A stretch of DNA of 64,000 bases from the NCBI RefSeq assembly GCF_054482595.1, contig NZ_CM137008.1; one strand, given 5' to 3'. How positions within the stretch are numbered: the stretch's first letter is position 1; each line of letters starts with the position of its first letter. This document shows, piece by piece, positions 7,447 through 39,673 of this stretch. The position numbers and the translations under genes are program-made. The notes beneath the pieces were generated by a model. It had not been told where the DNA came from, did no database searches, and saw only the letters and a program-made list of their open reading frames with translations.

Positions 7447-7637
7447 CTTTTGTTAACTCCTTTTTATAGATGCGGGAGGTAATTCCTCACCCCGGTGCCG
7501 ATTTTGAGGCATCCTGATTTAACTTAGCACCCGCAACTTAACTACAGGAAAACAAAGAGATAAATGTCTAATCCTGATGCAAATTGAGCCAATTTTTTAA
7601 TCTTTACGGACTTTTACTCGCCTGGTTTATTAATTTC

Positions 7638-7707: not shown

Positions 7708-10212
7708 ATGTCACAAATTATCGACCTGACCCTGGACGGCCTGTCCTGCGGTCACTGCGTTAAACGCGTGAAAGAAAGTCTCGAACAGCGCCCGGATGTG
7801 GAACAAGCGGATGTGTCTATCACTGAAGCGCACGTTACCGGGACTGCCAGTGCAGAACAGCTGATCGAAACCATCAAACAAGCGGGTTATGACGCATCTG
7901 TAAGCCACCCAAAGGCTAAACCGCTGGCGGAGTCATCAATCCCGTCGGAAGCACTGACAGCGGTTTCTGAGGCGCTTCCGGCAGCGACCGCCGATGACGA
8001 TGACAGCCAGCAGTTGCTGCTGAGCGGCATGAGCTGCGCCAGCTGTGTCACCCGCGTACAAAATGCGCTGCAAAGCGTACCGGGCGTCACTCAGGCACGG
8101 GTAAACCTGGCGGAGCGTACTGCGCTGGTGATGGGCAGTGCCTCCCCACAAGATTTAGTGCAGGCGGTGGAAAAAGCGGGCTACGGTGCGGAAGCGATTG
8201 AAGATGACGCTAAACGCCGCGAGCGCCAGCAAGAAACCGCCGTAGCTACGATGAAGCGCTTCCGCTGGCAGGCAATTGTTGCACTGGCTGTGGGTATCCC
8301 GGTAATGGTCTGGGGGATGATCGGCGATAACATGATGGTCACCGCTGACAACCGCAGCTTGTGGTTAGTTATCGGCCTGATAACCCTGGCAGTGATGGTT
8401 TTCGCCGGCGGCCATTTTTACCGCAGTGCATGGAAAAGCCTGCTGAACGGTGCAGCGACGATGGATACGCTGGTGGCGCTGGGAACGGGTGTGGCGTGGC
8501 TCTATTCGATGAGCGTCAACCTGTGGCCGCAGTGGTTCCCGATGGAAGCGCGGCATCTTTACTATGAAGCCAGTGCGATGATTATCGGTCTGATTAATCT
8601 CGGCCATATGCTGGAAGCGCGCGCACGTCAGCGTTCTTCTAAGGCGCTGGAGAAATTACTCGATTTAACCCCACCGACGGCGCGCCTGGTTACTGACGAA
8701 GGTGAAAAAAGCGTGCCTCTGGCGGAAGTGCAGCCAGGTATGTTGCTGCGCCTGACGACCGGCGATCGCGTGCCGGTAGATGGCGAGATTACCCAGGGCG
8801 AAGCATGGCTGGATGAAGCGATGCTGACGGGCGAACCAATCCCGCAGCAAAAAGGCGAAGGCGAAAGCGTCCATGCCGGGACAGTGGTACAGGACGGTAG
8901 CGTGCTGTTTCGTGCCAGTGCGGTTGGCAGCCATACCACGCTGTCACGGATCATTCGCATGGTGCGCCAGGCCCAGAGCAGCAAGCCAGAAATCGGTCAG
9001 CTGGCGGATAAAATCTCAGCCGTATTTGTACCTGTGGTGGTGGTGATTGCGCTGGTCAGTGCGGCAATCTGGTACTTCTTTGGTCCGGCACCGCAAATTG
9101 TTTATACCCTGGTGATTGCCACCACGGTACTGATTATCGCCTGTCCGTGTGCGCTGGGGCTGGCGACGCCGATGTCGATTATTTCCGGCGTCGGGCGGGC
9201 GGCTGAGTTTGGCGTGCTGGTGCGGGACGCCGACGCGCTGCAACGCGCCAGTACACTCGATACCGTCGTGTTCGATAAAACCGGGACGCTGACCGAAGGG
9301 AAGCCGCAGGTTGTCGCAGTGAAAACGTTTGCTGATGTTGATGAAGCGCAGGCATTGCGTCTGGCGGCGGCACTGGAGCAAGGTTCCAGCCATCCGCTGG
9401 CACGGGCGATCCTCGATAAAGCAGGTGATATGCAGCTGCCGCAGGTCAACGGTTTCCGCACATTGCGCGGGCTGGGCGTGAGCGGTGAAGCTGAAGGTCA
9501 TGCGTTATTGCTGGGCAATCAGGCGCTGTTAAATGAGCAACAGGTTGGTACCAAAGCTATCGAAGCGGAGATTACTGCTCAGGCATCGCAAGGAGCAACG
9601 CCTGTGCTGCTGGCGATTGACGGGAAAGCAGTAGCCCTGCTGGCTGTACGCGATCCGTTGCGTAGTGATAGCGTGGCGGCGCTGCAACGCCTGCATAAAG
9701 CGGGATATCGTCTGGTGATGTTGACCGGGGATAACCCAACCACCGCCAATGCGATCGCCAAAGAAGCCGGGATTGATGAGGTGATAGCCGGGGTGCTGCC
9801 GGACGGTAAAGCCGAAGCGATTAAACGCCTGCAAAGTGAAGGACGTCAGGTGGCAATGGTGGGCGACGGCATTAACGACGCGCCAGCGCTGGCTCAGGCG
9901 GATGTCGGCATTGCGATGGGTGGCGGCAGTGATGTTGCTATTGAAACCGCGGCGATTACCCTGATGCGCCATAGCCTGATGGGCGTTGCGGATGCGCTCG
10001 CTATTTCCCGCGCAACGCTGCGCAACATGAAGCAGAACCTGCTCGGCGCGTTTATCTACAACAGCATCGGTATTCCGGTTGCCGCCGGTATTTTGTGGCC
10101 GTTTACTGGAACACTGCTTAACCCGGTGGTTGCCGGAGCGGCAATGGCGCTCTCGTCGATTACCGTAGTGAGTAACGCCAACCGGTTGCTGCGGTTTAAA
10201 CCGAAGGAATAA
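7708..10212 (+). CDS. copA: Cu(I)-translocating P1B-type ATPase CopA
   Basis: 834-aa ORF; two N-terminal metal-binding domains (GLSCGHC, GMSCASC), CPC motif (IACPCALG), DKTGTLT phosphorylation site, GDGINDAP hinge. Confidence 0.97.
7908..7919 (+). other. copA: Programmed -1 ribosomal frameshift site in copA giving the short CopA(Z) product
   Basis: Slippery heptamer C_CCA_AAG at 7908-7914 in the copA zero frame (codons 68-69); -1 frame reads CCC AAA GGC TAA, stopping at 7917-7919. Confidence 0.7.
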
Positions 10213-35186: not shown

Positions 35187-38339
<3,153 letters not shown>

Positions 38340-38356
38340 TACAACGTGTAATCACT

Positions 38357-38381
38357 AAGGCCGCGCAAGCGGCCTTTTTTA
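38357..38381 (+). terminator. Rho-independent terminator of acrAB
   Basis: aaggccgcgcaagcggcc followed by tttttt, 18 nt after the acrB stop. Confidence 0.85.
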
Positions 38382-38884
38382 TGCATAACCTACGAACATT
38401 AAGGAGTAATTGAACCACCAACTCAGGATCTCATACGAAAACCAGTATTAACCACGTATAAAATTCATAAAAAATACTGATTGTTAGTTAATTTATATTA
38501 AGTAGCGCTAATAGATTTAATAATCCATAATCATTTAGAGGCTATTCTTAATTATTTGCGGTAATTCTTTATTCATTCCTCGGTTATTACGTCATATTCA
38601 GAGCAATCCTGGTATTAGTGTCACCAATTTCATCTGGCGATAATCCTGAAATGTTATGAACAGTTCGAGCAAACTGCTTTTACCTGCTGCGGGTTAGTGC
38701 TAGTATGAAAAAGTGAGTCCTGTCCCGATTCCTTCCTAATTGTAATTTTTCGTAATAATGCGATGAAAACCTGCAAAGAGTGGCTTATAGTTAAGCTAAC
38801 AAACGAGAGGGCAAGTCCAGGTCAGTAAGTTTTTTCCATCCCGAAAGGTGTCCGTTAGTTCAACCGCTAAGAAGGGGACGCGTT

Positions 38885-39259
38885 ATGGATGAATACTCAC
38901 CCAAAAGACATGATATCGCACAGCTTAAGTTTCTCTGTGAAACCCTGTATCATGACTGTCTTGCAAACCTTGAAGAAAGCAATCATGGCTGGGTTAACGA
39001 CCCAACCTCGGCGATCAACCTCCAGTTGAATGAACTGATTGAGCATATTGCGACCTTCGCACTTAATTACAAAATTAAGTATAATGAAGACAATAAGCTC
39101 ATTGAGCAGATCGACGAATATCTGGATGACACCTTTATGTTGTTCAGCAGTTATGGTATTAATATGCAGGATCTTCAGAAATGGCGGAAGTCAGGTAATC
39201 GACTATTCCGTTGTTTTGTCAATGCGACGAAAGAGAATCCTGCGAGTTTATCTTGTTAG
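38885..39259 (+). CDS. tomB: Hha toxicity modulator TomB (YbaJ)
   Basis: 124-aa ORF immediately upstream of hha. Confidence 0.9.
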
Positions 39260-39284
39260 AATTATTACAACCATGGGTAGAAGT

Positions 39285-39503
39285 ATGTCCGAAAAACCTT
39301 TAACGAAAACCGATTATTTAATGCGTTTACGTCGTTGCCAGACAATTGACACGCTGGAGCGTGTTATCGAGAAAAATAAATACGAATTATCAGATAATGA
39401 ACTGGCGGTATTTTACTCAGCCGCAGATCACCGCCTCGCCGAATTGACCATGAATAAACTATACGACAAGATCCCTTCCTCAGTATGGAAATTTATTCGC
39501 TAA
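39285..39503 (+). CDS. hha: Haemolysin expression modulator Hha (H-NS co-regulator)
   Basis: 72-aa product [72 protein letters not shown], found inside the longer track ORF 39039..39503. Confidence 0.93.
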
Positions 39504-39673
39504 TAAATAATTCGCTTTCGGAGCTATAACCGGCTGTTTATTAAGAATTTTATACTTTTCACCATGAAGACATACCCTATGTGATCTTTATCACACAGAT
39601 GTAATGGGAACGTTCTCTTCACTGACTTTTCGTCTTACTGTGTTGCCGCATTTTCAGCAACCGGAGGTCAGTA

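Follow-up and report, generated by a model that had tools for sequence, protein, structure and literature searches.

The acrB-tomB intergenic region

The stretch of DNA analysed here, 64 kb long and referred to below as the window, has acrB (35190-38339) on its plus strand, followed by a gap of 545 bp (38340-38884, 38% GC) and then by tomB (38885-39259), hha (ORF end at 39503) and maa. Read in reverse complement, the window corresponds to E. coli K-12 479.4-484.4 kb, and therefore coordinates were converted by taking the window position as 519593 minus the NC_000913.3 coordinate. The gap belongs to the core DNA of E. coli, being found at ≥90% identity in 5423 of 5426 complete genomes and at ≥95% in all but 19. 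It differs from K-12 at four of its 545 positions, none of which lies in the promoter hexamers or at the transcription start described below. The MG1655 RefSeq annotation places no feature in the gap.

The boundaries given in the original prediction were correct: the acrB ORF ends at 38339, a terminator hairpin (38357-38376) followed by a T-run comes next, and the tomB ATG stands at 38885. The terminator scan identified this element as the intrinsic terminator of acrB (38357-38382, plus strand; 8-bp GC-rich hairpin and T-run), which forms the left boundary of the region and whose hairpin is kept in all genera aligned. The claimed strong AT-richness of about 500 bp was also confirmed, with a GC content of 37.0% at 38382-38884 and 25.5% at 38440-38600 compared with 52.0% for the window. 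The AT-rich string originally quoted as an example lies at 38458-38539. No other 160-bp segment of the 64 kb is as AT-rich as 38438-38597 (25% GC; runner-up, 33%), the AT content of 38382-38884 is reached by only 0.25% of 500-bp windows, and the AT-rich part contains 16 TpA steps per 100 bp against 4.2 window-wide. As had been stated, no ORF exceeds 60 aa; the longest ORFs touching the gap have 44 aa (overlapping the end of acrB) and 40 aa. The gap is among the three longest in the window without ORFs of at least 100 aa.

The AT-richness extends beyond the upstream gap over the whole tomB-hha unit (38375-39640), with 39060-39559 ranking second in AT content among the 500-bp stretches of the window (37% GC vs 52%). 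Such a composition is common in DNA that is bound by H-NS or was once foreign.

For comparative analysis, 80 loci encoding TomB relatives were fetched from Enterobacteriaceae genomes, and 78 upstream regions from about 20 genera were aligned.

The tomB promoter and transcription start

A promoter scan of the plus strand of the gap returned a single candidate, ATGAAA-17-TATAGT, with 9 of 12 matches. This sigma-70 promoter, ptomB (38763-38791), consists of a -35 hexamer ATGAAA (38763-38768), a 17-bp spacer and a -10 hexamer TATAGT (38786-38791). The promoter is conserved across the 78 Enterobacteriaceae sequences, in all of which TATAGT is invariant. The same two hexamers were assigned by Shimada et al. 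2014, who found that the RpoD holoenzyme bound this spacer in vitro (SELEX).

Published 5'-end tables place the tomB transcription start site (TSS) at 38798 on the plus strand, with A+1 following T-1. The supplementary table of Druzhinin et al. 2015 (5' RNA-seq) has the entry "...cttatagttaagctAaca, tA, 480795 (-), tomB (b0461), -87"; K-12 480795 (-) corresponds to window position 38798, 87 nt before the tomB ATG and about 7 nt downstream of the -10 hexamer. The independent TSS list of Kim et al. 2012 likewise gives tomB a UTR of 87 nt. The next upstream entry in that list is acrA, and on neither strand does the list give a further TSS for the interval; it is less sensitive than dRNA-seq and samples few growth conditions. 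In Klebsiella pneumoniae, Kim et al. 2012 reported a UTR of 97 nt from the same promoter sequence. The start at 38798 and the lack of any other listed start indicate a leader of 87 nt rather than about 500 nt. The original prediction had considered a long 5' UTR for the hha-tomB operon and had named a start within about 50 nt of the ATG as the outcome that would speak against its reading; the mapped starts at -87 in E. coli and -97 in Klebsiella do not support the long UTR, and the E. coli start lies close to that 50-nt limit and far from 500 nt.

Further published data agree that transcription begins here. A plasmid-borne fragment from -100 to +15 is an active promoter as judged by primer extension. 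In stationary phase, primer-dependent initiation takes place at T-1A+1 of ptomB, and a large share of the transcripts begin at -1. A sigma-S ChIP-seq peak assigned to tomB (479920-480115) corresponds to window positions of about 38700-38895 if U00096.2 coordinates are assumed. Within 1 kb upstream of Salmonella tomB, three promoters were predicted, and only the proximal one drove GFP. The region thus contains one mapped sigma-70 promoter with a start at 38798, an 87-nt leader and primer-dependent initiation. In its locus, hexamers, T-1A+1 start and 87-nt leader it is the E. coli promoter described by Vvedenskaya/Druzhinin et al. and Shimada et al. 2014, and no difference in the core promoter was found between the window and the published promoter. 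The orthologous ymoBA operon of Yersinia pseudotuberculosis resembles tomB in having a leader of about 100 nt, but it has two TSSs, at -188 and -106, whereas E. coli and Klebsiella each have a single listed TSS.

Kim et al. 2012 also list two hha TSSs with UTRs of 115 and 16 nt (window positions of about 39170 and 39269), located inside tomB and in the tomB-hha spacer, which means that hha can be transcribed without tomB. The promoter scan additionally flagged TTCGCA-18-TATAAT inside tomB (39056-39085).

In strain TUM13773 (NZ_CP128912.1), an IS1 element stands in place of 38448-38827. This strain has lost ptomB, the TSS and the CpxR-type repeat described below, and retains only the last 57 nt of the leader. 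Its tomB-hha expression must come from IS1 or from acrB read-through.

The tomB leader

The leader (38798-38884, plus strand, 87 nt) contains the element CCAUCCC at 38836-38842 and the Shine-Dalgarno (SD) sequence GGGGA at 38874-38878. The predicted fold of the E. coli leader is no more stable than those of shuffled sequences (MFE -22.9 kcal/mol, z = 0.02). The RNAalifold consensus of 34 leaders is weak (-5.5 kcal/mol), with just four weak long-range pairs. No covariation was detected within the leader in these 34 sequences, the single compensatory pair falling in the coding part of tomB.

CCAUCCC is nearly invariant across genera, and a 6-bp pairing CAUCCC:GGGAUG that overlaps the SD sequence is possible in 94.6% of cells. 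In E. coli, a U-to-C change breaks one of these pairs. The hand-drawn helix shows no covariation; since both of its sides hardly vary, the alignment speaks neither for nor against it. Through such an anti-SD element, the leader could perhaps modulate translation. In Escherichia, GGGGAC (38874-38880) replaces GGGAUG, and the predicted fold pairs GGGGAC with GUGUCC (38850-38854). The GGAUG of the leader is, in addition, similar to a CsrA-type GGA site.

Search for a small RNA or a leader peptide

The original prediction had also suggested that the gap could hide a small RNA or a leader peptide, and neither suggestion was supported. An Rfam search of the gap at a permissive E-value found no family match, the weak noise hits being confined to the acrB terminator hairpin, and the terminator scan found no terminator-like site inside the gap. 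As for peptides, both small ORFs of the plus strand begin before the TSS, and their counterparts in other genera are cut short or unrelated. The 21-aa ORF at 38763 has its start in the -35 hexamer and is reduced to 3-6 codons in most genera. The ATG of the 13-aa ORF at 38656 is conserved; the length (7-46 aa) and sequence of this ORF are not, and it has no SD sequence. Two small ORFs on the minus strand are not conserved and were rejected as well.

Conservation upstream of the promoter

Conservation upstream of tomB is punctate in the 78 sequences. Several blocks far upstream of ptomB are kept across about 20 genera, which bears out the earlier remark that the region is more than a simple promoter needs, and two stretches (38383-38458 and 38665-38735) are unconserved.

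The first of these stretches, an insert of about 76 bp, is confined to Escherichia, all other genera having gaps in the alignment. The conservation to non-Escherichia sequences across 38390-38459 is 0.00-0.05, and outside Escherichia the next conserved block follows the terminator almost directly. The unusual length of the gap in Escherichia is therefore partly due to this genus-specific insert. An imperfect inverted repeat (38366-38386 and 38463-38483; 21 nt, 76% complementary) flanks the insert exactly and may be a trace of how it arose.

The conserved distal block (38460-38530) is AT-rich, with the consensus AAAAATCATAAAA..CTTATTGT..TTTATTTT..AATAAG...TATAAT, and its sub-blocks have column conservation of 0.6-0.9. 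Nearly all genera have in this block, at a constant position, a -10-like hexamer (TATAAT, TATCAT or TATAGT; column conservation 0.8-0.9), which reads AATAAT in the window (38519-38524). The promoter scan found no acceptable -35 for this hexamer, and neither the E. coli nor the Klebsiella TSS list has an entry there. A BPROM prediction in Salmonella, "p622", gave no GFP signal; judging from its position, p622 would be the equivalent of the distal block. Comparison by eye with the ArcA, OmpR, PhoP, IHF and marbox motifs did not yield an assignment. An inverted repeat between the distal block and the -10 region of ptomB (I2, 76% complementary) was not conserved as a minus-strand promoter and was taken as chance.

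Between the distal block and the promoter, the block GCTAAC..ATGAA (38645-38661) is also conserved (0.65 at 38650-38659; ATGA columns score 9). It includes the ATG of the 13-aa ORF.

A CpxR-type repeat at ptomB

A direct repeat, GTAAT-N5-GTAAT, is located at 38742-38756 on the plus strand, centred at -49 from the TSS. In the 78 sequences, TGTAATTTTTCGTAATA is invariant or nearly so while its flanks vary, and the distance from the start of the repeat to the -10 hexamer is constant at 44 bp. The CpxR consensus is reportedly GTAAA-N5-GTAAA. The repeat matches this consensus at 8 of 10 positions and its core GTAA-N6-GTAA exactly. The core occurs twice in the 64-kb window, where 1.1 occurrences are expected. 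The other occurrence, GTAAAAGTCCGTAA (7604-7617, minus strand), lies about 90 bp upstream of an 834-aa ORF (7708-10212) and may be another CpxR-type site.

RegulonDB names tomB-hha among the targets of CpxR, and the CpxR iModulon includes tomB, while tomB was not among the direct targets in E. coli CpxR ChIP-exo. An inhibitor of LolCDE, which causes envelope stress, induces tomB 5.9- to 11.2-fold. EMSA and reporter experiments in Yersinia pseudotuberculosis showed CpxR~P to bind a motif located 56 bp upstream of TSS2, the proximal start of ymoBA, and to raise promoter activity. Both operons have a CpxR motif at about -50 from the proximal TSS, with CpxR binding demonstrated for Yersinia only. 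Taken together, these data make it probable that CpxR~P activates ptomB from the repeat at -49.

A predicted RcsB-type box

Further upstream, the aligned sequences revealed a predicted RcsB-type pseudopalindromic box, TCAGAGCAATCCTG (38598-38611), centred at -193.5 from the TSS. The RcsAB consensus is said to be TAAGAATATTCCTA. The site aligns with sequences such as TAAGAATATTCCTA itself, the perfect box of Kluyvera ascorbata, and TAGGAATATTCCTA in other genera. The best match to this consensus scores 12-14 of 14 in 52 of the 78 sequences, as against 7 of 1560 shuffles. The E. coli box is the most diverged of the set, with 9 of 14 matches.

Huesa et al. 2021 described the RcsB homodimer motif TN(G/A)GAN4TC(T/C)NA. 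At the aligned site, GA and TC are invariant (78/78), a purine occupies position 3 in all but one sequence (77/78), and position 12 is a pyrimidine throughout. The motif is matched perfectly by 39 of the 78 sequences and with one mismatch by a further 35. The copy in the window matches at seven of the eight specified positions, its final A being G. The strict motif is expected to occur 2.2 times per 64 kb, and one match in a single sequence is therefore not significant.

A promoter adjacent to the box was considered and rejected, since a conserved -10 at class-II spacing, 30-48 bp downstream of the box, is found in just 22 of the 78 sequences. Validated RcsB boxes at -215 (Salmonella osmB) and -161 (ytfK) show that a distance like -193.5 does occur. 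The tomB box has the same pseudopalindromic form as the osmB and ytfK boxes and the RcsAB box of capsule promoters and lies, like them, about 190-220 bp upstream of the TSS; it differs from the osmB and ytfK boxes in being a prediction, with an E. coli copy that ends in G and is the most diverged in the family. The papers searched contain no description of Rcs control of tomB, ybaJ or ymoB, and the induction of tomB by the LolCDE inhibitor is confounded by Cpx as evidence for Rcs. Conservation of the box suggests with moderate support that RcsB may bind at about -194 upstream of tomB.

In strain 88COLEC (NZ_CP070906.1), the gap carries an IS1A element with a 9-bp target duplication, CAATCCTGG (38604-38612). 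The insertion interrupts the RcsB-type box and shifts the upstream DNA about 0.8 kb further from ptomB.

PdhR and H-NS

The tomB-hha operon has been reported as a direct target of PdhR. Anzai et al. 2020 assigned to tomB a weak gSELEX peak, which, oddly, had a value of 541 with pyruvate and 16 without. The "PdhR box" printed for tomB in that study (AAcgGaatcgACCAgcT) matches at 8 of 14 positions and maps inside the acrB coding region (K-12 ~481708); it was thus rejected as a PdhR box of the gap. A motif scan found a better match, TATTAGTGTCACCAATT (38613-38629), which agrees with the consensus AATTGGTnnnACCAATT of Anzai et al. 2020 at 12 of 14 positions. Its core is AGTnnnACC and not GGTnnnACC, the core needed for tight binding according to the same study, and the box is not conserved outside Escherichia. 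PdhR could conceivably bind here, at about -177.

The region had also been described as a curved regulatory region of the H-NS type. The H-NS part of this description is reasonable. Shimada et al. 2014 marked the acrB-tomB spacer with an H-NS site by genomic SELEX in vitro, and the high content of AT and TpA (25% GC, 16 TpA per 100 bp) agrees with H-NS binding. Curvature was not borne out: the AA/TT autocorrelation at lags 10-11 is just 0.07 and 0.02, and there are no phased A-tracts. The search for the H-NS motif TCGATAAATT gave no match with fewer than two mismatches, the sole hit having two (38744, minus strand). Given the SELEX site and the composition on the one hand and the weak motif and curvature tests on the other, "H-NS-type" is a reasonable term while "curved" is unproven. 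The spacer resembles proU and bgl in being very AT- and TpA-rich, adjacent to a promoter, bound by H-NS in vitro and a target of IS insertion. Unlike regions of the proU/bgl type, it has neither phased A-tracts nor a close high-affinity motif, and we found no report of silencing of ptomB by H-NS. We infer, with good support, that H-NS occupies the AT-rich upstream half of the region.

Discussion

The 545-bp gap very probably serves as the transcriptional control region of the tomB-hha operon and not as a long leader. In the model that we propose from motifs, conservation and the literature, the approximately 410 bp between the acrB terminator and the promoter, in which no start is mapped, would serve as a platform for regulators. 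CpxR~P would bind the invariant GTAAT-N5-GTAAT at -49 and activate, H-NS would bind the very AT-rich distal half, PdhR might bind the weak Escherichia-only box at about -177, and RcsB, as predicted in this analysis, would bind the conserved box at about -194. Three elements, namely ptomB, the CpxR-type repeat and the RcsB-type box, stand out as phylogenetic footprints between stretches of unconserved DNA. More tentatively, and with somewhat more doubt than confidence, we suggest that the RcsB-type box conserved in Enterobacteriaceae (about 190-220 bp upstream) gives tomB-hha a direct Rcs input beside CpxR, and that the distal block is a further module, possibly a conditional promoter silenced by H-NS.

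The evidence can also be read in other ways. Beyond the core promoter, the gap might be an inert AT-rich spacer coated by H-NS, in which the RcsB, PdhR and CpxR matches are coincidental. This would fit with the motif matches in a single sequence, which are not significant at 2.2 (RcsB) and 1.1 (GTAA-N6-GTAA) expected per 64 kb, with the large unconserved part of the gap (38383-38458 and 38665-38735), with the negative E. coli CpxR ChIP-exo result at tomB, and with natural strains that tolerate IS1 in the RcsB-type box or even the loss of 38448-38827. However, the conservation is sharply punctate and motif-shaped, and invariant GA and TC combined with purine or pyrimidine variation at the degenerate positions of the RcsB motif is unlike drift. 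Moreover, the CpxR-type repeat is invariant in 78 sequences between variable flanks, and the EMSA and reporter results from Yersinia support CpxR at the equivalent site. An inert spacer is therefore unlikely. A small RNA or a translated leader peptide controlling tomB-hha from within the gap is more improbable still, and we regard this reading as largely refuted. It could draw on the ATG at 38656, kept in nearly all genera, and on the invariant CCAUCCC, whose potential pairing with the SD region makes translational control possible, though not via a peptide. Against it, the gap contains no Rfam family or terminator-like site, the list of Kim et al. 2012 gives no TSS for such a transcript on either strand, and the leader fold is as stable as its shuffles (z = 0.02) with no covarying pair. 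In addition, all four small ORFs are variable in both length and sequence or are truncated in other genera, and both of the plus-strand ones start upstream of the TSS.

The third alternative concerns the distal block, where a second promoter with the -10-like hexamer at 38519-38524 could produce a leader of about 350 nt under unsampled conditions, for example when the envelope is under stress or H-NS is missing. Such a start would have the RcsB-type box about 70 nt downstream, where the box would act as a roadblock or an anti-silencer, and RcsB boxes downstream of a TSS have been linked to repression in the literature. The hexamer has a fixed position, a conservation of 0.8-0.9 and an A-rich stretch upstream, and the two TSSs of Yersinia ymoBA (-188 and -106) imply that operons of this family can have more than one start. 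The distal TSS of Yersinia, however, is at a different position (-188), no start is listed at the distal block in E. coli or Klebsiella, an acceptable -35 is absent, the E. coli hexamer is the weaker AATAAT, and the Salmonella p622 fragment, at the same position by our reckoning, was without GFP. Active transcription from this block thus has only a small chance of being correct, and a control region served by the single promoter ptomB remains the preferred reading.

Overall, the region is ordinary and already largely characterised. The promoter, the start site, the 87-nt leader and the links to CpxR, PdhR and H-NS have all been published, and the finding as originally stated therefore adds nothing new. 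The modest new point is a comparative one, namely the sharply conserved islands upstream of the promoter, one of them shaped like an RcsB box and one being the distal block. The products of the tomB-hha operon are Hha, a co-repressor acting with H-NS, and TomB, which modulates Hha. Together with H-NS, Hha silences virulence genes and genes acquired horizontally; the operon also influences biofilm formation and persistence, and its inputs are therefore of some interest. If the reading of the conserved islands is true, it would be an incremental addition to a known regulon rather than a new kind of element, and it would tie the expression of an H-NS co-repressor to envelope-stress signalling.
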